A stretch of 64,000 nt of DNA from Candidatus Omnitrophota bacterium (lineage in GTDB: Bacteria > Omnitrophota > Gorgyraeia > Gygaellales > Profunditerraquicolaceae): contig JAUYBI010000015.1 in assembly GCA_030693145.1 (NCBI GenBank), forward strand, positions 8,619 to 72,618. The letters run 5' to 3'. The notes under the pieces are model-generated. The model made no database searches, was not told the origin of the DNA, and worked only from the letters and a program-made list of their open reading frames with translations. Made by a program: the position numbers and the translations under genes. Position 1 is the first letter of the stretch. Every line of letters begins with the position of its first letter. This document shows positions 6,510 through 25,744 of the stretch, one piece after another.

Positions 6510-6522
6510 GGGGAAAATAAAA

Positions 6523-7746: not shown

Positions 7747-7750
7747 TTAT

Positions 7751-7807
7751 TCTTTTCGTCATTCCCGCGTAAGCGGGAATCTGATCCCCGCTTTCGCGGG
7801 GATGACA
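7751..7807. repeat. Nested double-hairpin element (GTCATTCCCGCGTAAGCGGGAATC..ATCCCCGCTTTCGCGGGGATGAC)
   Basis: Read directly. Its minus-strand translation gives the spurious RKRGSDSRLRGNDE peptide. Confidence 0.7.
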
Positions 7808-7833
7808 ATTTTGCTGTCTCTATTTAACTAATT

Positions 7834-9207: not shown

Positions 9208-9734
9208 GAAAATTAAATAACAAGGAAAAAATATTAGCAGCTGCGATCGGGGCCCTGTTGATTTTGCTGGCGCTTAAGGTTTTTGTTTTGGGCCCGATTT
9301 ATGATAAGACGGGTATTTATTCCAGCGAGATTGAACAGGCCAAAGTAACGATCCGCAAATATACGGCCTTAGAGCATAACCGCATGGAGATCCTCAAGGC
9401 CCAAAAACAGATTGAAGGGTATTCCAGCCTCAAGGGCTCGGATGAAGATAAGTCCGCGATGGTGATGAGCAAACTGGAAGCCGAGGCCAGAAGGTCTAAG
9501 CTGCAGATATTGGATATGAACTCCACCGGGGTGACTAAGGTTAAAGGCGGGGTAACTCTTTACCGGGTTAATTTAAGTGCTGAGGGCCAGTTAAAAGATT
9601 TTCTGGATTTTATTTCCGGGATTGAGGGGGCAAATATCCTGTTGCAGGTGGAGAAGATTACTTTAGCGGTTAAGGGTGAAAATACCGGATTATTAAAAAT
9701 TGATGTGGTGATTTTAGGAGTCGCTTTTGCTTAA
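9204..9734 (+). CDS. GspM/PilO-like bitopic inner-membrane protein
   Basis: 176 aa. N-terminal TM helix followed by a periplasmic domain. Its start overlaps the upstream stop (ATGA). Operon position after the GspL-like gene. Confidence 0.4.
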   Translation: MRKLNNKEKILAAAIGALLILLALKVFVLGPIYDKTGIYSSEIEQAKVTIRKYTALEHNRMEILKAQKQIEGYSSLKGSDEDKSAMVMSKLEAEARRSKLQILDMNSTGVTKVKGGVTLYRVNLSAEGQLKDFLDFISGIEGANILLQVEKITLAVKGENTGLLKIDVVILGVAFA

Positions 9735-9859
9735 TAAGCAGGGGAGGTTGAAACCTCCCCTACAGCTGTTAATAATCAACTATGGAGGATACTTTTGCTT
9801 AATGAGTAGGGGAGGTTTAAACCTCCCCTACAGCTGTTGATAATCAACTAGGGAGGATA
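9724..9859. repeat. 68-bp tandem duplication, each unit holding a PalA copy (GCAGGGGAGGTTGAAACC.. and GTAGGGGAGGTTTAAACC..) plus a CAGCTGTT(A/G)ATAATCAACTA tail
   Basis: The two units, 9724-9791 and 9792-9859, differ at about 5 positions. The first unit includes the gspM-like stop codon. Confidence 0.8.
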
Positions 9860-9861
9860 CA

Positions 9862-10260
9862 ATGAAGCGAGGTTTTACTTTAATTGAGCTGATGCTCGTG
9901 GTTATTATTATCGGCGTTTTATCGGCGATGGTTGTGCCGCGGCTTGCCGGAAGGAGCGAGCAGGCGCGTATACAAGCGGCAAAAACGGATATTAATTCCA
10001 GTATCCCGCTGGCGCTTGACCTCTATGAAATGGATACGGGCCATTATCCGGAGCTGCTGGATTACCTCAGGATTAATTCGGGGTTAGGCGCGGAAAGCTG
10101 GCGCGGGCCATATTTGAAGAAAAAACCCATGGATCCCTGGAATAAGCCGTATAGCTATAAATCCCCGGGTGAACATAATCAGGATGGTTATGATCTTTTT
10201 TCTTCCGGCAGTGATGGGCAGCCGGGGACAACGGATGATATTGTAAACTGGGGTGAGTAA
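9862..10260 (+). CDS. gspG: Major pseudopilin, type II secretion GspG
   Basis: MKRGFTLIELMLVVIIIGVLSAMVVP prepilin cleavage/methylation N-terminus and the typical GspG C-terminus (GYDLFSSGSDGQPGT.DDIVNW). RBS gggaggat. Confidence 0.85.
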   Translation: MKRGFTLIELMLVVIIIGVLSAMVVPRLAGRSEQARIQAAKTDINSSIPLALDLYEMDTGHYPELLDYLRINSGLGAESWRGPYLKKKPMDPWNKPYSYKSPGEHNQDGYDLFSSGSDGQPGTTDDIVNWGE

Positions 10261-10645
10261 GTTGAAGGGGTTTACATTAGTGGAGATAATGATCAGCGTG
10301 CTTATACTGGGAGTGGGTTTGACCCTGGTGGCCAATTCTTATCTTGTCGCTTTAAAAGGGGTAAATGCCGTTGCCAGTAATCTTGAAGCCTTGAATTTGG
10401 CTAAAGAGAAACTGGAGGCGCTGGAGGTTTTAAGTTTAAAAGACGGTTTGCTTGCTTCTAATACCAGTGAGGCCATAAAAACTCCTGCCAAGAATTATAA
10501 TTTTACGCAGGCAGTCGTGGAGATAACCCAGCCAAAAGTTTTGGCTGAGCACCTCGTGCAGGCCTGCTTAACGCTCAACTGGCAGGAACAAAATTCCGTA
10601 AAAAATGTTACCATTTCTACGTATCTATCCAAGCAAAAAAAATAA
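10253..10645 (+). CDS. Minor pseudopilin (GspH/GspI-like)
   Basis: GTG start. N-terminus KGFTLVEIMISVLILGVG is a prepilin-type motif. 130 aa. Confidence 0.6.
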   Translation: MSKLKGFTLVEIMISVLILGVGLTLVANSYLVALKGVNAVASNLEALNLAKEKLEALEVLSLKDGLLASNTSEAIKTPAKNYNFTQAVVEITQPKVLAEHLVQACLTLNWQEQNSVKNVTISTYLSKQKK

Positions 10646-11207
10646 ATTAAACTCAGGCGCTTTTACTTTGGTTGAGCTGCTGATCGCTGTTTCTATCTTC
10701 TCTGTCGTCAGTATTGCCATTTATTCGACTTTTAGTTCAGGGGCCGCTATTTTGCGCCGGGTAAAAAATATTGACCTTGCCCAACAAAGGATTTTACTCA
10801 AAACTGAAAGATTTTCCCGCGAGTTAAGGGAACAGGCCGTTTATAAAAAAAAGTTATTTTCAGGAACCAAAACAAAAATTATTTTTCCGGGAAATTCTGA
10901 TTATCTTCCCTGCCGGATAACTTATTATTATGACCCCTCCTCTTTTTGCCTGATGCGCGTCGTGGACAAACTAAGCGCAATCATCACCCCGGAGGGGAAA
11001 GTGGATGCGGAATTAAAATCAAAGCCGCAGGTTTTTTTATCCTCAATTAAAGAAGCAAATTTTTCCTATCTCTTTCTGGATTTAAAGAAGAATGTATATA
11101 GCTGGACAGAGGAATGGCGGCAAGATTATCTTCCTCTGGCGGTTAAGCTCACTATTATTAGCGAAAATTATGAACATGCCTCGACAATATTTTTACCCAC
11201 AGCATAA
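10605..11207 (+). CDS. Minor pseudopilin (GspJ-like), prepilin-type N-terminal domain
   Basis: SGAFTLVELLIAVSIFSVV prepilin-like motif. The leader before Gly is unusually long and the start codon is uncertain. About 180-200 aa. Confidence 0.45.
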   Translation: MLPFLRIYPSKKNKLNSGAFTLVELLIAVSIFSVVSIAIYSTFSSGAAILRRVKNIDLAQQRILLKTERFSRELREQAVYKKKLFSGTKTKIIFPGNSDYLPCRITYYYDPSSFCLMRVVDKLSAIITPEGKVDAELKSKPQVFLSSIKEANFSYLFLDLKKNVYSWTEEWRQDYLPLAVKLTIISENYEHASTIFLPTA

Positions 11208-12081
11208 TCAAGCAAGTATCCTGGTGGTTTGTCTTTGGGTGATCATGATCCTTTCCATGCTGGGCATGGGCCTGACCGGCCTGGTTTTTCAGGAGATAAA
11301 GTTTGCTAAGGTTTATCAGCGGATAAGTTTTTCCCTGCCCGCCGCCAAAGCCGCGCTGAAAACAGTTTTTTACCTGAGGCAGAGCGATCCTACGCCCGGT
11401 TTTGATACTTTTGAGGAGCTGGTAGAAGAAAATACTTGGGTTTTGTGCGCGGATAATTCCTATAAATATTATTTCGCGGATAAAAATAATTCCGCGGACG
11501 GGATTGAGGTTATTGACGAAGGCGCGTTGATTAATTTGAATACTGCCTCCCTGGATGTGCTGAAAAGGCTGCCGGGGATGGATGAGGATCTGGGGGAAAG
11601 TATCGTTAATTCCGGGGTGCGGCCGCTTAGTTCAATTCATGAAGTATTTTTGATTGAAGGTATGAGTAAGGATAAATTTATACTTTTTAAAGACTTAGTT
11701 ACTATATATGGAACAGGCAAGATCAATATTAATACCGCCAGCAAAGCGGTGTTATTAGCTTTGGGTTTGGATAATGAATTAGCAGGGGCGATTTTGCGTT
11801 TTCGGCAGGAATATAAGATCAAGAATCCTGATCCGGAATCTACCGAGGACTTAGGGTATGGTTTTTCCAGTGTGAATAAAATAATTGATGACTTAAGGAG
11901 TTTTACTTTTTTGGGTTTAAGGCAGGAGCAGGATCTCCTGGTGCTGCTTTCTGTATTCGACGTAAAGAGCGAGTACCTGCGCTTTAATATTATCCCTTAC
12001 TCCGGCGGCAGGGAGGGGCTGCACTACAGCATTGTTATTCATCCCGCAACTAAAAAGCTTCTTTCCTGGAACGAGTATTGA
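11170..12081 (+). CDS. gspK: Type II secretion minor pseudopilin GspK
   Basis: Two helix-hairpin-helix NINTAS repeats (INLNTASLDVLKRLPGM, ININTASKAVLLALGL) typical of GspK. N-terminal TM helix. The ATG at 11170 (MNMPRQ..) is preferred over the track start at 11092, which overlaps the previous gene by 115 nt. Confidence 0.7.
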   Translation: MNMPRQYFYPQHNQASILVVCLWVIMILSMLGMGLTGLVFQEIKFAKVYQRISFSLPAAKAALKTVFYLRQSDPTPGFDTFEELVEENTWVLCADNSYKYYFADKNNSADGIEVIDEGALINLNTASLDVLKRLPGMDEDLGESIVNSGVRPLSSIHEVFLIEGMSKDKFILFKDLVTIYGTGKININTASKAVLLALGLDNELAGAILRFRQEYKIKNPDPESTEDLGYGFSSVNKIIDDLRSFTFLGLRQEQDLLVLLSVFDVKSEYLRFNIIPYSGGREGLHYSIVIHPATKKLLSWNEY

Positions 12082-12348: not shown

Positions 12349-12618
12349 ATGGTTTGGGAAGCAGCGACTGAAAGCAAGTTTAAGGTCTTAATTTCTAAGA
12401 TCCCGATATTCCATCGGCGGATTACCGAATCCGTAGTTAGGCGTCAAGCTGAAGAGATTGCCGCCAGGCGTAATGCATCTGGAGTCCAAGAGCAGGATGT
12501 GGTGGCGGCTTTTTTTTCGGATGTTCCCTCGCCATTTTACAGTATGATGGTCCGCCTGCTCGGGCAAAATGGGTTTGATTATAAAAAGTACGGTTTTCCT
12601 AAAAACATTAAAAAATAA
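12349..12618 (+). CDS. Small PCP_red-domain protein (protochlorophyllide-reductase 57 kDa C-terminal-domain-like), function unknown
   Basis: 89 aa. W..A...K....KIPIF.RR......R..AEE.A motif resembling the Pfam PCP_red domain. Directly precedes the oxidoreductase gene. Confidence 0.45.
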   Translation: MVWEAATESKFKVLISKIPIFHRRITESVVRRQAEEIAARRNASGVQEQDVVAAFFSDVPSPFYSMMVRLLGQNGFDYKKYGFPKNIKK

Positions 12619-13622
12619 TGCGGATTGCGGTTATTGGTGCCGGAGCCATAGGTTGTTTAGTCGCGGGTTACCTTAAAGAAAAAGGCGAAGAGGTAACTTT
12701 AGTCGGGCATGGCCATACAGTTAAGGCGATTCATGAGCATGGTGTCGCTATCTCCGGGGCCAGGGGAAGTTTTAAGGTGCCGGTGAGCATTGCCGACACC
12801 TTAAACTATATTCCGGATTTAGTAATTTTAACCACTAAAACGCAAAATATTGATTCGGCTTTAGCGGATAGCGCGCATTTAATACAAAACTCTTTGTTGC
12901 TCACCACGCAAAATGGCGTGCAGGCGGATAAGTTGGCGGCAAAATACCTGCCTGCCGAAAAGATTATTTCCAGCATCGTGATGTTCGGCGCGACCAGCTT
13001 AGAAAGCGGCAAGGTGGTGCATAATTTTGAAGGCAGCTGGATAATCGGCAGCCTTTTTAATTCCCACCCTACGGAATCCCTGATTTCTTTAAGCTTGGTT
13101 TTAGACAAGGCCTTTCCTGTGATTATCAGCCAGGATATGCAGGGAATGAAATATTTGAAAATTTTTGTCAATGCTAATAATTGCCTGCCGGCGATTATCG
13201 GCAAGAGCATGCAGGAAGTTTTTAGCGATTTAACGATGAGCCGGATCAGTATCGCTATCTGGAAAGAGGCTTTTGAGGTTTTTGATAAAATCGGGATAGA
13301 TTTAGTTTCTCTTCCCGGGTTTCCGGTGGAGAACCTCACCAAATTTACTACCATGCCCAGCGCGCATGCCGCGGAGATCTTTTCGGCCATGATGAGGAAT
13401 CTAAGCAAAGACCCGTTGTACGGCTCAATATTGCAGAGCATCATGCGCGGTAAACTTTCGGAGATTGATTATATTAACGGTGAATTCGTGCGCCTGGCTG
13501 AGGAAAACAATCTGCAGGCGCCATTGAATAAAATTTTGGTGGACATGGTGCATCAGGTAGAAGCAAACCGAAGATTTTTTAGTAAAGAAGATTTAATCCA
13601 GAAGACTAAGGAGCTGGTTTAG
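12618..13622 (+). CDS. 2-dehydropantoate 2-reductase family oxidoreductase (ApbA/PanE-like)
   Basis: N-terminal MRIAVIGAGAIGCLVAGYL Rossmann motif, DLVILTTK, and a C-terminal ApbA_C-like region (SEIDYINGEFV). 334 aa. Confidence 0.75.
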   Translation: MRIAVIGAGAIGCLVAGYLKEKGEEVTLVGHGHTVKAIHEHGVAISGARGSFKVPVSIADTLNYIPDLVILTTKTQNIDSALADSAHLIQNSLLLTTQNGVQADKLAAKYLPAEKIISSIVMFGATSLESGKVVHNFEGSWIIGSLFNSHPTESLISLSLVLDKAFPVIISQDMQGMKYLKIFVNANNCLPAIIGKSMQEVFSDLTMSRISIAIWKEAFEVFDKIGIDLVSLPGFPVENLTKFTTMPSAHAAEIFSAMMRNLSKDPLYGSILQSIMRGKLSEIDYINGEFVRLAEENNLQAPLNKILVDMVHQVEANRRFFSKEDLIQKTKELV

Positions 13623-13625
13623 ATA

Positions 13626-14213
13626 ATGAATGAAGTAAATACCCCCTTTCCGCGGCTAAGGCTTACCGTAACCCAAGTTATGGGTGTCTGTTACCATGGT
13701 TACAAAATTGGCGATGAGATTATTTTAGAAGATTTTACGCATGGGCCTAAACATTTCTGTTTAGGATTGGCGCACGCTCTTTTTCCGGTAATCTACGCTT
13801 TAAGCTTTGGCGCAAAATTTGGTTTTCGTGATAATCAGCGCTCGCTGTTGGTGACCTGTCCGGATGGAGGCAAGCTGGAGTTTAAAGCCGAGATTTTGGA
13901 TAAACAGGGTAAGCTTGAGGAAATTCCGCGCGACCCGGAACATAAGGGGCCGCAGCCTAAGAAAATGATTCTGGAAGTAGTGCAATCCAAGGGCAAGTGC
14001 ACTTTTGGATATAAAGTAGGTGATAAATGGGAAACGCAGGGTTTAAAATGTATTCCGGATTTTTGCGGAGCGGCATTTCACACTGCTTTTCCGGCTTTGT
14101 TTGCTTTAAATTTTGGAGCCCAGTTTTTCTTTATGCCCAATCCGGATACAATTGATACGGTTACTTGCCCGGATGGCGGGAATATTATTTTTAAAGTGAA
14201 AAGGATAGATTAA
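13626..14213 (+). CDS. Tandem-duplicated TIGR04076-like domain protein, function unknown
   Basis: Two internal repeats. Each carries C.HG.KIGDE ... FC.G.AHA.FP...AL.FGA.F ... CPDGG..F, the pattern I recall for the TIGR04076 small-protein family. Confidence 0.45.
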   Translation: MNEVNTPFPRLRLTVTQVMGVCYHGYKIGDEIILEDFTHGPKHFCLGLAHALFPVIYALSFGAKFGFRDNQRSLLVTCPDGGKLEFKAEILDKQGKLEEIPRDPEHKGPQPKKMILEVVQSKGKCTFGYKVGDKWETQGLKCIPDFCGAAFHTAFPALFALNFGAQFFFMPNPDTIDTVTCPDGGNIIFKVKRID

Positions 14214-14219
14214 AGTAGA

Positions 14220-14259
14220 GTAGGGGAGGTTTAAACCTCCCCTACAGTTGTGGATAACT
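14220..14259. repeat. PalA G-variant with the CAGTTGTGGATAACT tail
   Basis: Perfect 26-bp palindrome at 14220-14245. The tail carries TGTGGATAA. Confidence 0.85.
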
Positions 14260-14283
14260 CACAGTGTGAAAGGAAAAAGAGAA

Positions 14284-15543
14284 GTGATTAAACGCAGGGT
14301 AGTGATTACCGGCATTGGGGTAATTTCGCCTAATGGCATCGGTAAAAAGAATGCCTGGGAAGGTTTTGCCGGCGGAAAATCCGGGGTACGTTTAGTTGAT
14401 GGTTTTGATGTCTCAGTATTTAATACTAAAATTGCCGCGGAGGTGCGCGATTTTGATCCTTTTAAATTAGGCTTAAGCCATGAAGAAGCCATGCGCATGG
14501 ATCGCTATGTGCAATTTGGCGTAGCTGCCGGTAAAATGGCAGTGGAAGACAGTAAGTTGGACTTTTCTCAAGAAGATGTTCAGCGCATCGGCGTTTGTTT
14601 AGCTAATGCTATCTGCGGGACCAAATATATGGAAGAAGAGTTTGCTTTGGTTACTGACGACGGGAAAAAACCCATAGATCCGAGTTTAGTGCGGCCGGAT
14701 TTATATGATGCGGCAATGTTTAATACTCCGTCAATTGAAATCAGCGCGCGTTTCGGCTTAAAAGGAAGTTGTAATACTATTTCCACCGGATGCACCGCAG
14801 GCACGGATTCCTTAGGTTTTGGCCTGGAAAGTATTCAGGATGGGTCGTTGGATGTGATGATTTGCGGAGCAGCCGAAGCGCCGCTTACTCCGATTACCTT
14901 TGGCGCTTTTGACGTGGTAAATGTCTTATCAGTGCATAATGATGAGCCGCAAAAAGCATCGCGCCCCTTTGATAATAAAAGGGATGGGTTTGTTTTAGGA
15001 GAGGGGGCCGGGATACTGGTGCTGGAGGAATTAAATCACGCCTTAAAGCGGAATGCCCCGATTTATTGCGAGATTTTGGGTTTCGGCACCAGTTGTAATG
15101 CTTTTCATATGACGGATCTTCCTTCTGATGGACGGGCAATGGAGACCTGTATTGCCCTGGCCTTAAAAGATGCGCAGGTTAAACCCTCTGAAATTGATTA
15201 TATCAACGCGCATGGCTCAAGTACGCGGATGAATGATATTTTTGAAAGTAATGCTTATAAAGCGATTTTTGACGAAGCTGCCTATCAGCTGCCTATCAGT
15301 TCATTTAAATCTATGATCGGCCACCCTCTGGCTGCGGCTAATGCTATTGAGATGACGATTGCCGCGATGATTTTTGAGAAAAATATTCTTCCTCCGACGA
15401 TAAACCAAGAGGAAAAAGACCCGCAGTGTGACCTGTATTATATTCCCAATGAAGCGATACAGAAAAAAGTAAATATTATTTTAAAAACCAGCAGTGGTTT
15501 TTCAGGGATACACTCTTCGCTGGTTTTGAAACGATTTAAATAA
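14284..15543 (+). CDS. Beta-ketoacyl synthase (FabF/KS-alpha-like), catalytic Cys-His-His present
   Basis: VVITGIGVISPNG. Active-site ISTGCTAGTD. Conserved His residues at HGSSTRMND and SMIGHPLAAA. The track start (14248, TTG) lies inside the palindromic repeat. The GTG at 14284 gives MIKRRVVITG. Confidence 0.85.
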   Translation: MIKRRVVITGIGVISPNGIGKKNAWEGFAGGKSGVRLVDGFDVSVFNTKIAAEVRDFDPFKLGLSHEEAMRMDRYVQFGVAAGKMAVEDSKLDFSQEDVQRIGVCLANAICGTKYMEEEFALVTDDGKKPIDPSLVRPDLYDAAMFNTPSIEISARFGLKGSCNTISTGCTAGTDSLGFGLESIQDGSLDVMICGAAEAPLTPITFGAFDVVNVLSVHNDEPQKASRPFDNKRDGFVLGEGAGILVLEELNHALKRNAPIYCEILGFGTSCNAFHMTDLPSDGRAMETCIALALKDAQVKPSEIDYINAHGSSTRMNDIFESNAYKAIFDEAAYQLPISSFKSMIGHPLAAANAIEMTIAAMIFEKNILPPTINQEEKDPQCDLYYIPNEAIQKKVNIILKTSSGFSGIHSSLVLKRFK

Positions 15544-15611
15544 AGGGGACGGTTCTATTTTTTATAGAGCCTGTTTGATAAAAAAATAGAACCGTCCCCG
15601 GGATTTTAACT
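15543..15611. repeat. HpB hairpin with GGGATTTTAACT tail between the KS and CLF-like genes
   Basis: AAAGGGGACGGTTCTATTTTTT..AAAAAATAGAACCGTCCCC-GGGATTTT, ending at the ATG. Confidence 0.8.
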
Positions 15612-16841
15612 ATGAATAAAATTGCTATCACGGGTATCGGCGTAGTCAGCCCCTCAGGGATCGGCAAGCGGCAATTCTGGGCGAATATTAAAAGCGGACG
15701 CTCGTTCATTAAAAAGATTACGCGTTTTGATGCCAGCCTTTATCCTGCGCATATTGCCGGGCAAATTGATGACCTGGAAAAGTATAGCCATATCTCCGAG
15801 AGGCTGCTGAAGAAAATTGATGCTTTTTCACATATGGCGCTGGTGGCCGCAGAGCTGGCTTTGCAGGATGCCGGGATTGATATTAAGAATGAAGATCCGA
15901 ACCTGGTGGGTATCTTTTTAGGTAATGCTATTGGCGGCTGGCTTTACGCGGAGACAGAGTTAAGGGACCTGTATTTAGAGGGGCGCCAGGGTGTCTCACC
16001 TTACATGGCTAGCGCCTGGTTTCCGGCGGCACCTCAAGGCCAGGTTTCAATTTATTATGGGATTAAAGGTTTTAGCAAGACCGTAGTCAGCGACCGGGCC
16101 AGCTCCCTGATGGCGCTGGGCTATGCCCGGAAAGTTTTGGCTAAAAATAAACTAAACATGATTTTAGCCGGAGGGATGGAGGCGCCGGTTACTCCGTATG
16201 CTTTATTATGTTGTAATACCTATGGGGCGCTCTCTAAAAACAATGATCATCCGGCGGCAGCTTATCGTCCATTTGACCAGGAGCGCAGCGGTTTTGTGAT
16301 TGGCGAAGGCGCGGGGATTGTGGTCATGGAAAGTATTCAACGCGCCAGGGGCCGGGGCGCGAATATTTTAGGCTTAATTAGCGGCTATGGCACTTCTTGT
16401 GACGGGGTAAATAGAATTAATTGCGCTAGCGACGGGAAGGAACTGGCGCGGGCGATAAATATGGCGCTGGCGGATGCCCAAGTGGCTGCTGAAGAAATTG
16501 GTTATATCAGTTTAGACGGCTTGGCAGTGGAGCTTTGGGATAACTCCGAAATTAAAGCGCTAGAATTAGTTTTTGGGGAGAACTTAAAGAAAATTCCTGT
16601 AAGCTGCCCAAAATCTATGTTCGGGAATTTGCTGGGGGCTTCCGGTGTTTTAGATATGATTATCGCGCTTTTAACTATGGAGCATAGTTTAGTCCCTCCG
16701 ATATTGAATTTAGAGAAGCCGGCTTTAAACAGTTTAAATTATGTGGCTAAAGAGTCCAGGGAATATAAGGTAAGTAAATCTTTGATTATTTCACGCGGAA
16801 GAGGCGGGATTAATTCGGTTTTGGTTGTTGAGAAATTATAA
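15612..16841 (+). CDS. Ketosynthase-like partner lacking the catalytic triad (chain-length-factor / KS-beta-like)
   Basis: KS fold (IAITGIGVVSPSG). At the active-site position the sequence is VVSDRASSLMALG, with Arg in place of Cys. Neither conserved His is present (LDGLAVELWD, SMFGNLLGAS). Confidence 0.75.
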   Translation: MNKIAITGIGVVSPSGIGKRQFWANIKSGRSFIKKITRFDASLYPAHIAGQIDDLEKYSHISERLLKKIDAFSHMALVAAELALQDAGIDIKNEDPNLVGIFLGNAIGGWLYAETELRDLYLEGRQGVSPYMASAWFPAAPQGQVSIYYGIKGFSKTVVSDRASSLMALGYARKVLAKNKLNMILAGGMEAPVTPYALLCCNTYGALSKNNDHPAAAYRPFDQERSGFVIGEGAGIVVMESIQRARGRGANILGLISGYGTSCDGVNRINCASDGKELARAINMALADAQVAAEEIGYISLDGLAVELWDNSEIKALELVFGENLKKIPVSCPKSMFGNLLGASGVLDMIIALLTMEHSLVPPILNLEKPALNSLNYVAKESREYKVSKSLIISRGRGGINSVLVVEKL

Positions 16842-16842
16842 G

Positions 16843-16882
16843 GCAGGGGAGGTTTAAACCTCCCCATGTTTTAAAACGGAGG
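16843..16882. repeat. Truncated PalA (GCAGGGGAGGTTTAAACCTCCCC) fused to the ATGTTTTAAAACGGAGG RBS module
   Basis: A chimera of the two repeat families directly upstream of the radical SAM gene start. Confidence 0.7.
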
Positions 16883-16886
16883 AAAT

Positions 16887-18347
16887 ATGAAAATACTATT
16901 TGTTATGCCGAAAGTCGGTGCTTGGGCAACGCATGGAACACATCGTTCTCCGAATCAGTTATACGCGCATTGGGCGGCTTATGCGCGCGAAAGAGGCTAT
17001 GAGGATGTTTCTGTCTTAGACGGTAAAGCAGATCAAATTCCGATGGACGCTCTGATTGAACAAGTAAAACTTAAAAATCCGGATATCGTGGTGATGGGGG
17101 AGCAGCTGCACGGTTATGGCGGATATGGAGTTCTGCGGCATTTTAAAGATGCGGCCCTGGGGATTAAAAAAGCGCTGCCGAGAACAAAAATAATTCTCGG
17201 TGGGTTATGGTATTCCGCAATGCCGGTGCCGACATTAGAGGAGAATCCCGCGGTTGATTTTGTGGTGATGGGGGAAGAAGAATCTTTCGGAGATTTGATT
17301 GAGGCCATCGATAAAAATAAGCCTTTTGGCGACGTGGGCGGAGTCACTTCCCGCGTTGCCGGGGAAATTGTCATGGGCCCCCATAAGCCGCTGATGGAAG
17401 ATTTAGACAAGCTTCCTCTGCCGGCCTATGATTTATTTCCGATGGATAAATATGTAGGCCACACCTATTGGAAACCATTTGTGGATATCGTTACTTCGCG
17501 GGGATGCCCTTCAGCGTGCACCTTTTGTTATGAATGGGATCAGTTTGACCCGCGTTCACCTTCAGATTTCTTGAAATGGCGGGCGAAGTCTCCGGAAAGA
17601 GTTATGGAGGAGCTGAATCTTTTGCATCGAAAGTACGGAGTTAAAGTCGTGGTTATCCAGGACGACAATTTTAATGTCGACCCTAAAAGAGTACAGAAGT
17701 TCTGTGAACTTAAAAAAGCATCGAACAATCCGATTAAGTGGGTATCTTTAGGCCGGGCTATTGATTGGGTTAATTGTGAATCCATCCTGCCCCTGATGAA
17801 GGAAAATGGTTTATTCATGGGTGTTTTCGGTATTGAGGTTACCACGCAATCAGAGCTCAAGCGCATCGCTAAAGGTATTACCATTGACCAGATTAAGAAA
17901 ACCATAGAGATCCTGCGCAAAAATGATATCGCGATTGTCGCCGATATCATGATGGGTTTTGATTATGACACCGAAGCGATTATCAAGCAGCGTTTTGAGT
18001 TTACGGATCAGGTGGATCCGGATATTCTTTGGGTGGGCTATGTTACTCCTGCCCCGAATTCGCCGATGTGGAGGATTGCTTTAAAGAAAAACTGGATTGA
18101 TCCTAAAAAAGTAGATTTTAGCCGGTGGGATTTCTTGCATCCGGTAATTCCTACGGACCATCTGTCTACGGAAGATCTCGGACGCCTGGGTTCCTGGTGT
18201 ATGCGTGAATTTTTTTCCAAGCCCGGGCGCATTAATAGAATTATGGAAAGTGATTTTGATCCATTAGCTAAGCTTTGCTTTCAGGACGTGATGGCCGGAG
18301 TTGGTAAATGGGAAGCAGCCGCAACCAAGGGCGAAGTGCAGATATAG
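16887..18347 (+). CDS. B12-binding-domain radical SAM enzyme (class B radical SAM)
   Basis: N-terminal cobalamin-binding-like domain. Radical SAM core with a CPSACTFC (CxxxCxxC) cluster motif. 486 aa. Confidence 0.8.
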   Translation: MKILFVMPKVGAWATHGTHRSPNQLYAHWAAYARERGYEDVSVLDGKADQIPMDALIEQVKLKNPDIVVMGEQLHGYGGYGVLRHFKDAALGIKKALPRTKIILGGLWYSAMPVPTLEENPAVDFVVMGEEESFGDLIEAIDKNKPFGDVGGVTSRVAGEIVMGPHKPLMEDLDKLPLPAYDLFPMDKYVGHTYWKPFVDIVTSRGCPSACTFCYEWDQFDPRSPSDFLKWRAKSPERVMEELNLLHRKYGVKVVVIQDDNFNVDPKRVQKFCELKKASNNPIKWVSLGRAIDWVNCESILPLMKENGLFMGVFGIEVTTQSELKRIAKGITIDQIKKTIEILRKNDIAIVADIMMGFDYDTEAIIKQRFEFTDQVDPDILWVGYVTPAPNSPMWRIALKKNWIDPKKVDFSRWDFLHPVIPTDHLSTEDLGRLGSWCMREFFSKPGRINRIMESDFDPLAKLCFQDVMAGVGKWEAAATKGEVQI

Positions 18348-18352
18348 AATTA

Positions 18353-18430
18353 AATCAAGGGGACGGTTCTATTTTTCCGTCGCCCAACTGGTTTGAAAAA
18401 CAGAACCGTCCCCATGTTTTAAAACGGAGG
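18353..18430. repeat. HpB hairpin plus the conserved ATGTTTTAAAACGGAGG RBS module upstream of the ACP gene
   Basis: AATCAAGGGGACGGTTCTATTTTTCCGTCGC...CAGAACCGTCCCC-ATGTTTTAAAACGGAGGATAAATG. Confidence 0.8.
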
Positions 18431-18434
18431 ATAA

Positions 18435-18671
18435 ATGGATACAAAAATAAAAATAAAAGAAGTATTGAGCAGTTTATTAAAAGTAAAAATTGAGGAATTA
18501 AAAGACGGCTCTACTTTAATTGACAGCATCGGCGTGGATTCTACGGAGATGGTGGAATCGGTGATTGCCCTGGAAAAATCATTCGGGGTGAAGCTTAGCC
18601 CCAAAGAGATTACCAAGAACTCAACGATTAACGATATCGTAAATAATATCCAGTCAAAGTTAAATAAATAA
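18435..18671 (+). CDS. Acyl carrier protein
   Basis: 78 aa. Phosphopantetheine attachment motif LIDSIGVDSTEMVE (DSxGxDS). Confidence 0.8.
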   Translation: MDTKIKIKEVLSSLLKVKIEELKDGSTLIDSIGVDSTEMVESVIALEKSFGVKLSPKEITKNSTINDIVNNIQSKLNK

Positions 18672-18673
18672 AG

Positions 18674-18711
18674 TTATCCACAACCGTAGGGTGGGTTTAA
18701 ACCCACCCTAC
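18674..18711. repeat. PalA T-variant in inverted tail orientation (TTATCCACAACC-GTAGGGTGGGTTTAAACCCACCCTAC)
   Basis: Perfect palindrome. TTATCCACA precedes it. Confidence 0.85.
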
Positions 18712-18740
18712 AGGGGTAAATAAAAAGAGGAGCCAGCCGG

Positions 18741-19541
18741 GTGAAGATAGTTGATTTAAGCCTGCCCATCGATGAGTCGGCTTTTGAGGTGCACAAGGTG
18801 GATATTGAACGGATAACGCATCGAGCCGGTGTAGATAAATTTAATCGCGTGATTATGGGCAAGGCCCTGTGGGGTAAAATAAAATACGCCTTAGGACAGC
18901 GCATCGTGAAAAAAGAACAGCTGCCCGACGAAGAATTTCTCTCCTTAGAGATCGTGCACGCTCCGGTGCATATCGGAACACACCTGGATTATTCTTTCCA
19001 TTACGGCTCAAAATCAGAGAACCGCGCCTCCAAGACCGCGGATGAGATCCCGTTAGAATATTGTTATCAGGATGGGGTTAAACTTGATTTTAGGCATAAA
19101 AAACCCAATGAGGTAATCAAGGCAGCGGATATAGAAAGCGCTCTAAAGAAGACAAATTATCAACTTAAGCCTTTAGATATTGTATTATTACAGACGGCAG
19201 CGGATAAGCTTTATGGCGGGCCAAAATATTTTTCCGATTATCCTGGCGTAGATCCCTCAGCTATAGAATATCTTTTAGATAAAGGAATTAAGATCTTTGG
19301 CGTAGACACGATGGGGATTGACCGGCCGTATAGATTTATGCTCAGTGAATTTATTAAGACCAAAGATCCAAAGACATTTTATCCAGCGCATTTTTATGGC
19401 CGTAAAAGAGAATTTATCCATATCGAGCGGCTGGCGAACCTGGAAAAAATACCGGATTCCGGTTTTAAGATTCTTTGTTTTCCGATACGCATAAAGAATA
19501 CTGGCGCAGCTTGGGCCAGAGTAGTTGCTCTTTTAGATTAA
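18741..19541 (+). CDS. Cyclase-family protein (Pfam Cyclase / kynurenine-formamidase-like fold)
   Basis: GTG start after RBS aagaggag. HAPVHIGTHLDYSFHYG matches the HxGTHxDxPxH metal-binding motif of the putative cyclase family. Confidence 0.65.
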   Translation: MKIVDLSLPIDESAFEVHKVDIERITHRAGVDKFNRVIMGKALWGKIKYALGQRIVKKEQLPDEEFLSLEIVHAPVHIGTHLDYSFHYGSKSENRASKTADEIPLEYCYQDGVKLDFRHKKPNEVIKAADIESALKKTNYQLKPLDIVLLQTAADKLYGGPKYFSDYPGVDPSAIEYLLDKGIKIFGVDTMGIDRPYRFMLSEFIKTKDPKTFYPAHFYGRKREFIHIERLANLEKIPDSGFKILCFPIRIKNTGAAWARVVALLD

Positions 19542-19548
19542 AATTAAA

Positions 19549-19626
19549 AATCAAGGGGACGGTTCTGTTTTTCCGTCGCTTAATCTAATTGAAAAATAGA
19601 ACCGTCCCCATGTTTTAAAACGGAGG
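19549..19626. repeat. HpB hairpin plus the ATGTTTTAAAACGGAGG module upstream of the SRPBCC gene
   Basis: About 85% identical to the 18353 copy, including the loop TTTTTCCGTCGC. Confidence 0.8.
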
Positions 19627-19631
19627 GACAA

Positions 19632-20072
19632 ATGGGCCACACGTGTAACTCGATTATTATTAATGCGCCTTATGGTTTAGTTTTTGATATTTCTAATGAT
19701 ATTACGCGTTGGACGGAGTTATTCGGTACGGAATATAAAAAAGCAGAGGTAGTGAAGAAAGAATCCAATAAGATTACTTTTCGCCTGACGGATGAAGATG
19801 ATAAATCCTGGCAATCCTGGCGGCTGCTTTTTAAGGATAAGTATTTTGCCTATGCGGAAAGGGAGGAGCCCAAATTTCCTTTTAAATATATGAAGATCAT
19901 CTGGCTTTATACGCCTAAACCAGAAGGAATAGAAATGGCCTGGATCCAACATTTTGAGATGGAGCAAAAGGCTAAGTTTAATGATGCGCAGATTGAAGGG
20001 TTTATTAATGAAGGCTCGCAGGATAATTTGAAGATTTTTAAAGAGATTATTGAAAAAGAAGCGCTGAAGTGA
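19632..20072 (+). CDS. SRPBCC-fold protein (polyketide cyclase/dehydrase-like, Polyketide_cyc2-like)
   Basis: 146 aa. N-terminal IINAPYGLVFDISNDITRWTELF resembles the I.AP.E.VW..L.D.E.WP.W start of Polyketide_cyc2/SRPBCC proteins. Confidence 0.45.
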   Translation: MGHTCNSIIINAPYGLVFDISNDITRWTELFGTEYKKAEVVKKESNKITFRLTDEDDKSWQSWRLLFKDKYFAYAEREEPKFPFKYMKIIWLYTPKPEGIEMAWIQHFEMEQKAKFNDAQIEGFINEGSQDNLKIFKEIIEKEALK

Positions 20073-21199
20073 AAAAGGCTACATTTAGTATACTTTGCCT
20101 GGAAGGAGCGGTTTTATCATTTAATGTGGCCGCTGCCGCAGCCCTGATCCCGTCAATTGCCGCGGATTTTGCTCTTTCTCAGTTTTTTGTGGGTAAGATA
20201 ATTTGGCTATATATGCTCCCCTATGGACTGGCGGCATTTCTTTATGGGCCGCTGGTGCGCGCTTTTGATGCGCGGAAAGTAGAGCTGGCCTGTATCTTCT
20301 TATTCTCCCTGGCTAATCTTCTGGCAGGTTTAGCTCCGGATATTCATACGCTTTTTGCAGCCAGGTTTCTCATGGGGATTTTTGGCGCCTCGGTAATTCC
20401 GCTGGGTTTAATTCTGATTGCTAAACATATCCGGCAGAATAAGCGCGGAGGCTATGTGGGAATATTTTTTGGCTGGACCTTTGTTGCTTCTTTACTGGGG
20501 TTATTTTTAAGCGGGTTAATTCCCTGGCGCTGGATATTTATAATTCCGGCAGTTTTAGGGCTGGTTCTGTGGGTTTTTATGTATTTTTATTTGCCTAGTT
20601 TTAAAGAAGGCCTGGGGGTTTTTCGTTTCGGGTATCTGGAAGCATTTAAAGATAAGAAAGTAGCGAGGATCTTTCTTTACATCTTTCTGATTAGTTTAAT
20701 TTATCATGGGGTGCAGCAGTGGCTGGGGGTTTATTTTTCTACGCAGCTTTTCTTAAACCAGTTTACGATTAGCATGATGATTACCTTAACCAGCTTGAGC
20801 GGAATATTCGGGGAATTTTGGGGAGGACATCTTGCGGATCAGCTAGGCAGGCCCAGAGTAGTAAGCCTGGGTATTATTGCCATGGTTCTGGGCATCCTTT
20901 TGCTTTTATTAAAATTGCCTTTAACCTTACTCGGCCTGGCGATGATCATTTGGGGCTTGGGTTGGACCTTTAATCATGTAGGCTTGGCGACGATGTTAAC
21001 GGACCTGCCGCCAGAATTCTTAAATGAAGCGGCTAGCTTAAATAGCGGAGTGCGTTTTATTGCCGGCGGGCTGGGGGTAAGTTTAGGCGGCCTGTTGATG
21101 CTTAAAAGTTTTAATTTTGGTTTTGTTATTTTTGGCAGCGCGCTGGTTTTGCTTTTATTTTCAGGCAGAGTGTTTAAATTTAAACAACCGGCAAATTGA
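20069..21199 (+). CDS. MFS transporter
   Basis: 376 aa. About 12 predicted TM helices with MFS-like loops (DQLGRPRV). The GTG start overlaps the upstream stop (GTGA). Confidence 0.75.
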   Translation: MKKATFSILCLEGAVLSFNVAAAAALIPSIAADFALSQFFVGKIIWLYMLPYGLAAFLYGPLVRAFDARKVELACIFLFSLANLLAGLAPDIHTLFAARFLMGIFGASVIPLGLILIAKHIRQNKRGGYVGIFFGWTFVASLLGLFLSGLIPWRWIFIIPAVLGLVLWVFMYFYLPSFKEGLGVFRFGYLEAFKDKKVARIFLYIFLISLIYHGVQQWLGVYFSTQLFLNQFTISMMITLTSLSGIFGEFWGGHLADQLGRPRVVSLGIIAMVLGILLLLLKLPLTLLGLAMIIWGLGWTFNHVGLATMLTDLPPEFLNEAASLNSGVRFIAGGLGVSLGGLLMLKSFNFGFVIFGSALVLLLFSGRVFKFKQPAN

Positions 21200-21239
21200 C
21201 CGGGGCCGTTGTAGAGAGAATTTCAAAGGAGGATTTATC

Positions 21240-22016
21240 ATGGGTACGGATTTAAAAGGACGTGTTGCTATCATTACCGGAGCCAGCCGCGGTATTGGCA
21301 AGGCCCTGGCTTGCACTGCGGCAAGCCTGGGAATAAATTTGGTGATCGGCGCCCGCGGCCAGGAAGCTTTAAATGAGGCCGCCGCAGAGATTGCCGGAAA
21401 ATTTAAAGTACAGGTTTTGCCGGTGGCTTGCGATGTGACCAAGCTGGAGGATTTGGAGAAGCTGGTTAAAAGCGCCAAGGAAAAGTTTGGCCAGATCGAT
21501 ATTCTGATCAATAATGCCGGAGTTTCCAGCCAGTATCCTTTTCAGGATCAGCCAATCGAAGATTTCGAAAGGTTGGCCCACACCAATTACCTGGGTTATG
21601 TCAGGCTTATCCGCCTGGTGATTAATGATATGATCAAGAATAAAAGCGGAGCGATTATTAATATGGTTTCCGGCTCGACTTTATGCGACCCGCTGCCTAG
21701 GAATTTTATCGTTTACAGTTCACTTAAGGTTGGCTTAAGGGCATTTTCTAAAGGATTATTTTGGGAACTGCGCGATCATGGGATCAAAGTGACTTCGATA
21801 TTGCCCGGAGTAACCGATACGGATTTAACCGGTAAATTACAGGAGATTACCGCGGATACCTCGCGTTTAATGACTACCGAAGCGATTGAGAATGCCGTGC
21901 GTTTTGCTTTGACTGTGCCGGCGAATGTCTGCCCTTTAGAGATCGCGGTGATTAACCAACAGACACCCTGGACTGCTCCGGTGATACCGTTTCAACAGCG
22001 GCATCCGGGAAAGTAA
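21240..22016 (+). CDS. Short-chain dehydrogenase/reductase (SDR, ketoreductase-like)
   Basis: GRVAIITGASRGIGKALA NAD(P)-binding motif and INNAG. The ATG at 21240 follows RBS aaggagg. The track start at 21117 overlaps the MFS gene. Confidence 0.8.
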   Translation: MGTDLKGRVAIITGASRGIGKALACTAASLGINLVIGARGQEALNEAAAEIAGKFKVQVLPVACDVTKLEDLEKLVKSAKEKFGQIDILINNAGVSSQYPFQDQPIEDFERLAHTNYLGYVRLIRLVINDMIKNKSGAIINMVSGSTLCDPLPRNFIVYSSLKVGLRAFSKGLFWELRDHGIKVTSILPGVTDTDLTGKLQEITADTSRLMTTEAIENAVRFALTVPANVCPLEIAVINQQTPWTAPVIPFQQRHPGK

Positions 22017-22025
22017 AAAGGAAAT

Positions 22026-22445
22026 ATGAATAATCAGGATATTAAGAATTTAAAGAAGCGTTATTTTATCTGGCTCTATAAAGCCGCCAAAGAAACCTTT
22101 GATAAATACGAGCGTAAGTTTACGCAAGTGGATATTGATAAGGATATCCTGGAAGAGATGGAGAAAGAGCTTTTAGGCTCCTATCTTCCTCATGAAAAAG
22201 ACGCCCTGCAAATGCAGATCAACGATTTTCAAAAATATATCGAGAATAAAGAAAAGTCTTGTTCAGAATTCAGGGATCAGCATAAAAAGATCAATCCGGA
22301 TTTTATTTTCTCAGAGATAAAACTGAATGCTATTGAGAAAGTAATTGTTAAGGGGTTAGGCAAAAGAGGCTTAGAGGAAATAAAATCCCTTTATGAAAAA
22401 GAAATGACTGAACGCATCTTAAAGAATACGGAGCTTTCCCGGTAA
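22026..22445 (+). CDS. Hypothetical helical protein
   Basis: 139-aa ORF inside the operon. Lys/Glu-rich with no recognisable motif. Confidence 0.4.
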   Translation: MNNQDIKNLKKRYFIWLYKAAKETFDKYERKFTQVDIDKDILEEMEKELLGSYLPHEKDALQMQINDFQKYIENKEKSCSEFRDQHKKINPDFIFSEIKLNAIEKVIVKGLGKRGLEEIKSLYEKEMTERILKNTELSR

Positions 22446-23356
22446 TGTTAATTGACGCGCATAGCCATTGGCTGCCGGAAGAAATAATTACTAATGCCCA
22501 TTTTTTTCATAAAGGATGGGGTGAGATTGAGGTGCAGCTTAAGGTTATGGATGAGGCAGGAATTGACCGGGCAGTCTTAAGTTATCCCACAACAGACGCG
22601 CATTTAAAGTTAGGCAGTATCAGCCAAGTAGCGCATATTTATAATGATAATGTTGCCAAGATTTTAAAAGCTTATCCGGAAAGATTTATCGGTGCGGCGG
22701 TTTTACCGGTAGATAATTCTTATGATATGCTGGAAGAGCTAAAGCGGGCAATCAATGAGTTAGGTTTTAAGGCAATTTCCCTTGCCTCAAGTTATAACGG
22801 TATATATTTGGATGACAAGATGTTTTTACCTATATATAAAGAAGCACAAGAAAAGGATATCCCGATCTTTGTGCATGCGCAAATTGTGAACCCGATAGGT
22901 TTTGAGCGGGTTAAGGATCCTCTGCTTACCCCGGTAGTGGAATATGTTTTTGATACTACGATTTCAATCGGCAAGCTTTTAATGTCGGATATTCTACGGC
23001 AGTATCCTAAGGTAAAATTTATTTTCGCCCATTTTGGCGGGGCAATCTGCTATCTAAAGCAGCGCTTTGACGCCACTTATCAGATGCTGCGGGAGATGAA
23101 CTTTGTTAAAGACTTACAGGGGCTTCCTTCAGATTATTTTAAGAATATCTACGTCGATACCAGCGGCGATACGACTAAGGCGAATTTCCTGCTTGCTCTT
23201 GAACTCATGGGCCCAGAACATATTTTGTGGGGCTCTGACTGGCCAGCTAAAAAAGATATGGCCAGTGGTATTAAAGCTGTCAATGATTTGGATATATCTG
23301 GAGAGGATAAACAAAATATCTTGGGTAGTAATTTAGAGAAGATATTCGCTCTTTAG
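22445..23356 (+). CDS. Amidohydrolase-2 family protein (ACMSD/decarboxylase/hydratase-like TIM-barrel metalloenzyme)
   Basis: MLIDAHSHWLPEE N-terminal metal-binding motif typical of Amidohydro_2. The start overlaps the upstream stop (TAATG). Confidence 0.65.
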   Translation: MLIDAHSHWLPEEIITNAHFFHKGWGEIEVQLKVMDEAGIDRAVLSYPTTDAHLKLGSISQVAHIYNDNVAKILKAYPERFIGAAVLPVDNSYDMLEELKRAINELGFKAISLASSYNGIYLDDKMFLPIYKEAQEKDIPIFVHAQIVNPIGFERVKDPLLTPVVEYVFDTTISIGKLLMSDILRQYPKVKFIFAHFGGAICYLKQRFDATYQMLREMNFVKDLQGLPSDYFKNIYVDTSGDTTKANFLLALELMGPEHILWGSDWPAKKDMASGIKAVNDLDISGEDKQNILGSNLEKIFAL

Positions 23357-24865: not shown

Positions 24866-24955
24866 ATATTTTAGCGGGTGACACGGAGGCGGGTCCCCTG
24901 CCGCGCGCAACGCAAGTGAGCACGGTAGGGTGCCGCAGTGGCAGGACGCGCGTAA
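24866..24955. repeat. GC-rich structured element (TTTTAGCGGGTG...CGCGCG) directly upstream of crcB
   Basis: About 70% GC with multiple complementary GC-rich blocks. It does not fit the fluoride riboswitch consensus by eye. Confidence 0.55.
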
Positions 24956-24960
24956 GTATT

Positions 24961-25335
24961 ATGATGAAATTATTGAACTTGATTATTGGGGGAGCGGTAG
25001 GGACAGTTGCCAGGTATTTTTTAGCCGGCGTTGTTTACAGGTTTATGGGTGCTGGGTTCCCTTATGGTACATTAATTGTAAATATCAGCGGCTGTTTTAT
25101 CCTGGGTTTTTTAGCTGCTTTATCGGATAAGAAATTTATTCTTGGGCCGGATGCGCGCCTATTGTTGATGATTGGTTTTTGCGGGGCTTTTACCACATTC
25201 TCAACCTTGATCTTTGAGTCTGATAGCTTAGTTAGAAATGGCCAGGCAATCCGTGCTTTTACTAATATCTTTGCCAGCGTAATTTTAGGCTTTATATTAT
25301 TTAGAGTAGGCAGTTTATTAGGAGAGATAATATGA
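24961..25335 (+). CDS. crcB: Fluoride ion channel CrcB/FluC
   Basis: 124 aa from the ATG at 24961 (MMKLLNLIIGGAVGTVARY..., GFCGAFTTFSTL). Four TM helices typical of the Fluc family. The upstream part of the track ORF translates a GC-rich structured element. Confidence 0.8.
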   Translation: MMKLLNLIIGGAVGTVARYFLAGVVYRFMGAGFPYGTLIVNISGCFILGFLAALSDKKFILGPDARLLLMIGFCGAFTTFSTLIFESDSLVRNGQAIRAFTNIFASVILGFILFRVGSLLGEII

Positions 25336-25661: not shown

Positions 25662-25744
25662 TTTAAGAAAAAACGAGCGGGAAGATATGAGCTTGACAAT
25701 GTTCTCAGATATGATACAATTGTTCTCAAAGGGAGAACAGTAAG

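Follow-up and report, generated by a model that had tools for sequence, protein, structure and literature searches.

Introduction

What is a ketosynthase for when its nucleophilic cysteine has been replaced by an arginine? The question is raised by a gene at positions 15612-16841 of a 64,000-nucleotide stretch of DNA from a Candidatus Omnitrophota bacterium (contig JAUYBI010000015.1, positions 8,619 to 72,618 of the forward strand, assembly GCA_030693145.1), a stretch that we call the window. An initial annotation, made from the sequence alone, had described the product as a ketosynthase (KS)-fold partner of the KS encoded just upstream, with Arg in place of the nucleophile Cys and both active-site His lost, and had taken the Arg to be unusual and to imply a non-decarboxylating, purely structural or gating partner. 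As we argue below, the protein is very probably the chain-length factor (CLF, or KS-beta) of a type II aromatic polyketide synthase (PKS) belonging to the ancestral type found outside actinobacteria, a dead partner of its KS-alpha in which Arg162 is typical of the lineage and non-catalytic. The Arg-type CLF is an ordinary member of a little-described CLF branch and no new kind of enzyme.

A ketosynthase fold that cannot condense

The open reading frame (ORF) starts with ATG, runs for 409 aa without interruption and spans a complete KS (thiolase-like KASII) fold, matching PF00109 (E 3.5e-45) and PF02801 (E 3.1e-25) both at full length. Its catalytic columns were set by HMMER alignments to the FabF entries 3o04, 5sxo and 1j3n, by BLASTP against the upstream KS, and by a MAFFT alignment of the CLF with Bacillus subtilis FabF, the upstream KS and the actinorhodin (act) CLF. 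All three approaches return the same residues: R162 (VVSDRASS; 16095-16097) in the column of the nucleophile Cys, D302 (ISLDGLAV; 16515-16517) in that of the first His (His1), N339 (KSMFGNLL; 16626-16628) in that of the second (His2), and K334 as the retained catalytic Lys. The Arg that had been noticed at the nucleophile position is thus agreed by every alignment, with neither Cys nor Gln at the site, and the protein is indeed a KS-fold partner devoid of the Cys and of both His. The initial annotation was right to read SMFGNLL as one of the lost His sites; the other segment that it quoted, VELWD (residues 306-310), lies 4-8 residues past the true His1 column. In the upstream KS, the triad is intact (C182, H322, K354 and H359, together with the gate Phe). 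Because it has no Cys and no His-His pair, the CLF is unable to act as a condensing enzyme. In an AlphaFold2 (AF2) model of the monomer (predicted local distance difference test score, pLDDT, of 90.8), R162 sits at the N-terminus of helix 161-177, and the sole low-confidence stretch covers residues 111-140.

Could the substitution be a frameshift or a sequencing error, or the gene a decaying pseudogene? Conservation leaves such an explanation practically no chance. The four residues R/D/K/N are invariant in the 121 closest homologues (82-98% identity), which come from independent assemblies. In a genome scan with one genome per species, from which we kept the best 80 of at least 570 loci for the AWFPAA-motif family (this set underlies all 80-locus counts given here), the CLF gene is found in 80 Omnitrophota species at 76-98% identity, and Arg162 is present in every one of them, encoded by CGG (35), AGG (22), CGC (14), CGT (3), AGA (3) or CGA (3). 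All six Arg codons are in use; therefore, the codon turns over while the amino acid is held. Against ten relatives, the ratio of non-synonymous to synonymous divergence (pN/pS) of the CLF gene is 0.07-0.11, about 0.08, with synonymous sites near saturation (pS 0.5-0.76). The KS gene gives 0.08-0.10 and the radical S-adenosylmethionine (SAM) gene of the same cluster 0.05-0.11, the ApbA-like reductase gene being looser (0.13-0.30). Purifying selection on the CLF equals that on the catalytic KS. An identical protein is on deposit as MDP3041407.1, from a Candidatus Omnitrophota metagenome-assembled genome (MAG), the reading frame is intact, and nothing was found in favour of an artefact; conservation and pN/pS led us to reject frameshift, sequencing error and pseudogene alike.

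A chain-length factor without the canonical glutamine

Is this dead partner a CLF? Beside it lies an intact KS-alpha, and its cluster encodes an acyl carrier protein (ACP) and a TcmN-like aromatase/cyclase (ARO/CYC). Further likenesses emerge from comparison with the act CLF, whose sequence in our alignment and tree is partial and was checked residue by residue against PDB 1tqy_B. Both proteins have an acidic residue just before the nucleophile column (D-R here, E-Q in the act CLF), both have exchanged the first His for Asp while keeping the Lys, and in both the KS gate loop GFG has become RGR (SRGRGG here, comprising R395-G-R397, and ARGRWG in the act CLF). The loss of both His, which had been counted as an added oddity, is canonical for CLFs, the act CLF having Asp and Arg at these positions. 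It is this loss, a trait of all CLFs, and not the Arg, that makes a structural, non-decarboxylating role plausible; the Arg specifically does not imply it. What the protein does lack is the signature Gln of canonical actinobacterial CLFs, which, as had been stated, is present in the act CLF (AEQAGG), Arg162 standing in that column here. AntE, an accepted CLF, is also without Gln (PMC6638757).

A neighbour-joining (NJ) tree of 45 KS-family sequences (Kimura distances, FabF outgroup, 100 bootstraps) brings the stand-alone inactive partners, including the act CLF and the CLF of the window, together as a monophyletic group in 93/100 bootstraps, apart from a KS-alpha clade that contains the KS of the window, AntD, the Clostridium beijerinckii KS and others (94/100). 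Several points weigh against the assignment. The tree is crude and distance-based, contains the act CLF as a partial sequence and over-represents relatives of the query. In raw sequence score, FabF (286 bits) comes out ahead of the act CLF (246 bits). Finally, Foldseek comparison of the AF2 model with the PDB does not discriminate, giving template modelling (TM) scores of 0.96 for FabF and 0.93 for the act CLF, with every KASII structure at a TM of ~0.95.

How does the putative CLF compare with those already described? The act CLF (ActI-ORF2) shares its KASII fold, its dead triad and its pairing with a KS-alpha, an ACP and an ARO/CYC, but it has Gln161 where Arg162 stands here, Arg where Asn339 stands here, an identity of ~31-34% and an actinobacterial context of O2-dependent tailoring. 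AntE, the CLF of the Photorhabdus anthraquinone pathway (6smo), is, like our protein, non-actinobacterial and without Gln, and it pairs with AntD, to which our KS-alpha is closer than to any other solved structure; unlike our protein, AntE is reported to have Asp at the site, and it is too divergent to appear among the PDB matches listed for the CLF.

Other classes of KS-fold protein were considered and rejected. A plain FabF paralogue is excluded by a TIGR03150 score of 367 bits against a cutoff of 493.75 and by the missing Cys-His-His triad. KSQ loading domains, as well as FabF C163Q, resemble the CLF in having the nucleophile Cys replaced within a KS fold, but KSQ is a working decarboxylase in which both His are retained, whereas the protein studied here has Arg at the Cys column and has lost both His. 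An AmcF/AmcG cispentacin-type system was suggested by a match to NF058662; this match is to AmcF, the KS subunit, falls below the cutoff and reflects generic KS similarity. AmcG-type partners are truncated, motif-less and encoded in 2-oxoglutarate-primed clusters, unlike the full-length KS fold found here.

A probable aromatic polyketide cluster in at least 80 species

The KS/CLF pair is embedded in a one-strand gene array (12349-23356; Table 1) that is syntenic in 80 Omnitrophota species loci (L006-L085), with median identities of 83.1% for the KS and 80.5% for the CLF. Judged by its sequence, this array appears to be a type II aromatic PKS cluster, because it encodes a TcmN/WhiE ARO/CYC homologue, because its KS is nearest AntD (6smo_B, 378 bits) and the act KS (1tqy_A, 372 bits), ahead of FabF (350 bits), and because family searches of the cluster proteins found no FabZ/FabA dehydratase or enoyl reductase within 12349-23356. 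The PF04199 protein, whose gene also adjoins the KS/CLF pair in the related clusters L001, L003, L004 and L005, is probably an OxyN-type polyketide cyclase. A KS-CLF-ACP-TcmN-OxyN architecture has been called ancestral and non-actinobacterial (PMC7693217), and the core of the Omnitrophota cluster resembles it. KS-CLF pairs from Candidatus Omnitrophica were already included in a 2023 catalogue, with no residue-level comment (PMC10132072).

The position of a B12-binding radical-SAM gene between CLF and ACP invites another explanation, namely that the pair is a fatty-acid-type KS with a dead FabF, as in anammox bacteria, and makes a radical-SAM-modified lipid of the 'ladderane' type instead of an aromatic polyketide. 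The pair amxFabF2/amxFabFmut is indeed a heterodimer of a KS and a dead partner encoded beside radical-SAM genes of the TIGR04072 type. We presume that PDB entries 9s5h and 9s5i are this heterodimer, and tentatively take 9s5h_C, a weaker match of the CLF (176 bits), to be the dead partner. The dead anammox subunit has FabF as its closest structural relative (B. subtilis FabF; bioRxiv 10.64898/2026.05.19.726425), as does our CLF, which scores higher against FabF than against the act CLF, and antiSMASH 'ladderane' biosynthetic gene clusters (BGCs) have been reported in Omnitrophota MAGs (PMC9902471). However, the anammox genes lie in a FabZ-containing, fatty-acid-like context without an ARO/CYC, the dead subunit has Val or Thr at its site and its gene is upstream of the KS gene; here the partner gene is downstream, the cluster has a TcmN/WhiE ARO/CYC homologue (E 1e-24) and a PF04199 cyclase and no FabZ/FabA or enoyl reductase, and the KS is closest to AntD and the act KS. 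Moreover, against rSAM_ladder_B12 (TIGR04072), which has a cutoff of 360, the radical-SAM protein reaches no more than 66 bits. Gene content and this weak score led us to reject a ladderane/anammox-type lipid cluster, and we regard a lipid product as very unlikely.

Arginine is the common state of a little-described branch

How exceptional is the Arg? Our library survey covered ~25 stand-alone representatives at 36-59% identity to the CLF, of which 14 read D-R-A-S/G at the nucleophile site, the others having K (2), A (2), I, T or M; among the 14, the His1 column holds D, E, H, A, N or S. A profile search, which partly recovers the reach of the AWFPAA-motif family beyond Omnitrophota, found D-R in C. 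beijerinckii, in myxobacteria (Polyangium, Sorangium and other Polyangia), in the cyanobacterium Leptolyngbya and in a Bacillota MAG, while Nitrospirota relatives read D-S with Asn/Asn (Ser in P0272). The survey of CLF active-site residues in homologues, proposed as a check by the initial annotation, therefore returns D-R as the commonest state, with Lys, Ala, Ile, Thr, Met or Ser elsewhere. The Arg is unusual relative to actinobacterial CLFs but not within its own branch: D-R is the common state of the sampled non-actinobacterial CLFs. We found no mention in the literature of an Arg at the CLF nucleophile site, although dead partners without Gln have precedents in AntE, which has Asp (PMC6638757, S2 Fig legend), and in the anammox FabFmut, with Val or Thr (bioRxiv 10.64898/2026.05.19.726425).

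A sister group at 50-53% identity (P0272, P0274, P0278 and P0285, from Nitrospirota and other MAGs) shows the pattern D-S / Asn / Lys / Asn and a gate loop containing Gln or Ile; in one of its members, the nucleophile column holds a Cys but there is no His.

Could the Arg-type CLF serve a proven pathway? Proteins WP_077837155.1 and WP_077846909.1 (P0130 and P0385, which share a 90% cluster), from C. beijerinckii and C. puniceum, read VADRASG and VADRTSG at the site; these organisms are the two known clostrubin producers. P0130 is thus putatively ClrB, by virtue of its occurrence in both. In the literature, C. beijerinckii is the one species named as a source of clostrubin (PMC4382683), two clostrubin CLFs are listed as ClrB and 'ClrB Cp', and ClrB is placed in the 'ancestral' non-actinobacterial CLF group (PMC7693217). 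If P0130 is ClrB, then a proven aromatic PKS works with an Arg-type CLF. The clostridial protein is, like ours, a stand-alone KS-beta encoded directly downstream of KS-alpha, with the D-R site, an acidic His1 (Glu), the Lys and R395 all kept, and its cluster also encodes a PF04199 cyclase, an SRPBCC cyclase, an amidohydrolase-2 protein and an ACP. It differs in its identity of 43-44%, in having retained His2 (R/E/K/H versus R/D/K/N here) and in its surroundings, which include phosphopantetheinyl transferases, alpha/beta-hydrolases and a ketosynthase III and have no B12 radical-SAM gene between CLF and ACP.

In the related L004 cluster, the CLF (P0128) has Ile and Ala at the Cys and His1 columns. 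This cluster shares the ApbA-like, KS, CLF, ACP, cyclase, SRPBCC and amidohydrolase-2 genes with the window, without the radical-SAM, major facilitator superfamily (MFS) and short-chain dehydrogenase/reductase (SDR) genes. The occurrence of Ile or Ser in clusters of related genes therefore disfavours a universally required catalytic role of the Arg.

What the dead site may do

How, then, could the dead subunit contribute to synthesis? Most likely, the CLF is the obligate heterodimer partner of the KS-alpha, which it would stabilise while shaping the interface tunnel that sets chain length. KS-alpha itself would carry out acyl transfer, the decarboxylation of malonyl-ACP and Claisen condensation on the ACP; the TcmN-like ARO/CYC, together with the PF04199 cyclase, would fold the resulting poly-beta-ketone, which the B12 radical-SAM enzyme, along with the reductases and the amidohydrolase-2 protein, would then tailor without O2. 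The low-confidence residues 111-140 of the CLF model lie where we would expect the dimer-interface loop. One loop of the anammox FabFmut, to which we assume this segment to correspond, is ordered when FabFmut is paired with its KS but disordered when it is alone, and the heterodimer decarboxylates malonyl-ACP through its live KS subunit (bioRxiv 10.64898/2026.05.19.726425). A 2025 review also places priming decarboxylation at the KS cysteine (PMC12664062). Because the anammox pair decarboxylates with a Val/Thr dead subunit, and because of the placement in the review, priming would most simply be assigned to KS-alpha.

Natural single-chain KS-CLF fusions of ~800-870 aa occur in other lineages (P0122, P0131, P0140, P0148 and others), with an intact C/H/K/H first half and a dead second half; P0131 has Arg at the nucleophile column of its second half. 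Such fusions, including this Arg-type one, are a Rosetta-stone hint that the two subunits are physically coupled.

What of Arg162 itself? Since the Cys, both His and the gate loop touch one another in KS structures, the residues that replace them should touch as well. Arg162 would then belong to a buried charged and polar cluster (D161, R162, D302, K334, N339, R395 and R397) that plugs the dead site, probably through salt bridges. In fact, sister lineages change positions 162, 302 and 395 together, as R/D/R, S/N/Q and I/A/T triplets. Yet this proposal meets several difficulties. The salt-bridge network is suggested by column adjacency in KS structures. Position 162 covaries only in part with 302 and 395, as R/E/Q, R/A/I and R/N/C also occur, and the changes stem mostly from single clades, so that they are phylogenetically non-independent. 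Holding the Arg through six codons in 80 species is stricter than a filler needs. Counting against the wider reading of the CLF as partner of KS-alpha, the KS and CLF genes lie 68 bp apart with a strong hairpin between them and, unlike their actinomycete counterparts, are not translationally coupled.

Such strict conservation, absolute in the 80 species in spite of codon turnover and in 121/121 close homologues, raises the alternative that Arg162 is functional and marks a second, non-condensing site, its guanidinium binding a carboxylate or a phosphate. Rather than a passive CLF, such a protein would be a factor for priming or cyclisation, with malonyl-ACP (during priming decarboxylation), the phosphopantetheine arm or the carboxyl terminus of the chain, growing or folded, as candidate ligands. 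The anammox FabFmut structure, in which an open tunnel leads to the mutated triad (bioRxiv 10.64898/2026.05.19.726425), would fit such a role, as would the precedent of AmcG, in which a KS partner has taken on the role of a 'cyclization factor' (PMC10698177). R395 and R397 could be enlisted as well, since they replace Phe residues of the gate loop; however, in the act CLF an identical RGR loop accompanies Gln. Furthermore, the two His that KS and KSQ need for decarboxylation are lost, and clusters with the same core genes have Ile, Ser, Lys, Thr, Ala or Met at the site. We therefore find a functional Arg162 unlikely and favour a lineage-typical, non-catalytic residue in a dead partner of KS-alpha.

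Genes and repeats around the pair

The coordinates of the cluster are collected in Table 1. Upstream of the KS, the small ORF at the 5' edge is syntenic in 64/80 Omnitrophota loci (many loci end short of it) with a median identity of 69%, and the ApbA/PanE-like reductase, which has counterparts in L001 and L004, is syntenic in 65 loci (60.8%). The next gene encodes a tandem-duplicated, Cys/His-rich TIGR04076 protein that is always directly upstream of the KS; it is syntenic in 74 loci (83%), and its position is taken in relatives by unannotated small ORFs, of 196 aa in L001 and of 89 and 83 aa in L004. The KS-alpha, listed from a TTG at 14248, may in truth start a few codons later. On the other side of the CLF, the radical-SAM gene is the best conserved of the cluster (median identity 89.7%); its product has BchE as its best NCBIfam match (204 bits, below cutoff) and lies below every equivalog cutoff. 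The ACP is syntenic in 62 loci (74.4%), the SDR is found in 53 loci (84.7%), and the amidohydrolase-2 protein is syntenic in 46 loci and also present in L001, L003 and L004. For the conserved 139-aa protein, family searches gave no match.

Table 1. Features of the window, with positions counted from its first nucleotide
Feature	Position	Strand	Details
Chain-length factor (KS-beta)	15612..16841	+	D161-R162 nucleophile site, D302 at His1, K334, N339 at His2, R395/R397 replacing GFG gate loop
Arg162 codon, CGG	16095..16097	+	Residue flagged by the initial annotation; Arg in 80/80 species, six codons
Small conserved ORF, 89 aa, 5' cluster edge	12349..12618	+	Sub-threshold Pfam matches only (DUF2621, PCP_red)
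ApbA/PanE-family NAD(P)H reductase, candidate ketoreductase	12618..13622	+	PF02558, PF08546; TIGR00745 185 bits, above cutoff
Tandem TIGR04076-family protein	13626..14213	+	TIGR04076 E 1e-27, two stretches
KS-alpha, intact ketosynthase	14248..15543	+	PF00109, PF02801; C182 at 14791-14793, H322, K354, H359, gate F418
B12-binding radical SAM enzyme, BchE-like class B	16887..18347	+	PF02310, PF04055; gene lies between those of CLF and ACP
Acyl carrier protein, 78 aa	18435..18671	+	GVDSTEM phosphopantetheine site; PF00550 E 9e-11
PF04199 'putative cyclase' family protein	18741..19541	+	PF04199 E 2e-29
TcmN/WhiE-type aromatase/cyclase (SRPBCC)	19632..20072	+	TcmN 2rez/2rer E ~1e-24; WhiE 3tvr E 4e-23; PF03364
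MFS transporter	20069..21199	+	PF07690 E 7e-47
SDR (FabG-like ketoreductase)	21117..22016	+	Probable start ATG at 21240; PF00106 E 6e-51
Conserved 139-aa protein	22026..22445	+	Syntenic in 44 loci
Amidohydrolase-2 family protein, candidate aromatic-acid decarboxylase/hydrolase	22445..23356	+	PF04909 E 3e-32
REP-like element, copies	104-137, 15545-15599, 18359-18413, 19555-19609, 42529-42571, 52766-52799, 61942-61994		
REP-like element, half-sites	59-71, 27064-27076		

The hairpin between the KS and CLF genes belongs to a repetitive extragenic palindromic (REP)-like element, GGGGACGGTTCT...AGAACCGTCCCC, that recurs in intergenic gaps of the window, its arms having 16 matches where 0.03 are expected by chance. 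Three copies lie inside the PKS cluster, at the KS/CLF, radical-SAM/ACP and cyclase/ARO-CYC junctions, and the first of these folds at -30.9 kcal/mol (z = -5.9). The 8-mer arm is found in 13/80 other Omnitrophota loci, and its paired form is seen chiefly in two of the nearest relatives; because it is largely absent from the other loci, we consider the motif to be genome-specific.

Just downstream of the PKS cluster, at 27992-30751, lie genes for a PNP_UDP_1 nucleosidase/phosphorylase, an MtnA-like isomerase and a class II aldolase. This set, also found at 18447-21242 in L001 (the relative at 59% identity), looks like a pathway for the salvage of methylthioadenosine (MTA) or 5'-deoxyadenosine and could serve the radical-SAM enzyme of the cluster. 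In many relatives, PNP_UDP_1 follows directly after the amidohydrolase-2 gene; here an island (24916-27956) stands between the PKS cluster and the salvage genes, encoding CrcB and DUF190 proteins (fluoride-related), a nucleotidyltransferase/HEPN pair and a Fic/DOC protein. The L001 cluster has extra genes, at 4851-6824 and 14177-16156, for two aldehyde:ferredoxin oxidoreductases, an amine-oxidase-like flavoprotein and an MMPL transporter with a DUF1329 protein, which hint at anaerobic redox tailoring and product export. Upstream of the cluster, the window encodes F-type ATP synthase subunits and a type II secretion or type IV pilus-like set (181-12081), the latter comprising an ATPase, a platform protein, a PilN-like protein, pseudopilins and a T2SK-like protein.

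Evolution and significance

How might an Arg have come to occupy the site? Arg is one transition away from Cys (TGY to CGY) and one from Gln (CGR to CAR), while a direct change from Cys to Gln takes three substitutions; speculatively, Arg could thus have been the stepping stone between the two. Fitch parsimony on the NJ tree puts Arg at the root of the sampled CLF clade, in a biased sample with a single Gln-type sequence. AntE, placed deeper still in published trees, nevertheless has Asp at the site. One may go further and propose jointly that Arg162 is a selected functional residue, anchoring a carboxylate or phosphate or holding the nascent chain, that the Arg-type is the ancestral CLF state, and that the cluster product is a physiologically core, anaerobically tailored aromatic polyketide. 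We consider this combination improbable; if it were true, the product would not be an accessory antibiotic, given a cluster present in at least 80 Omnitrophota species under KS-like constraint.

Our finding thus serves chiefly as a correction: textbooks describe CLFs as carrying Gln, which holds for the actinobacterial enzymes. These CLFs are presently annotated as 'beta-ketoacyl-ACP synthase family protein', and annotation or mining rules keyed on Gln miss or mislabel them. The nucleophile site accepts Arg, Ile, Ser, Lys, Thr, Ala or Met, a tolerance that favours KS-alpha as the place of priming decarboxylation. Finally, phylum-wide synteny and strong constraint in uncultured, ultra-small anaerobes are unusual for a 'secondary' metabolite, and they make the product of this cluster worth identifying.

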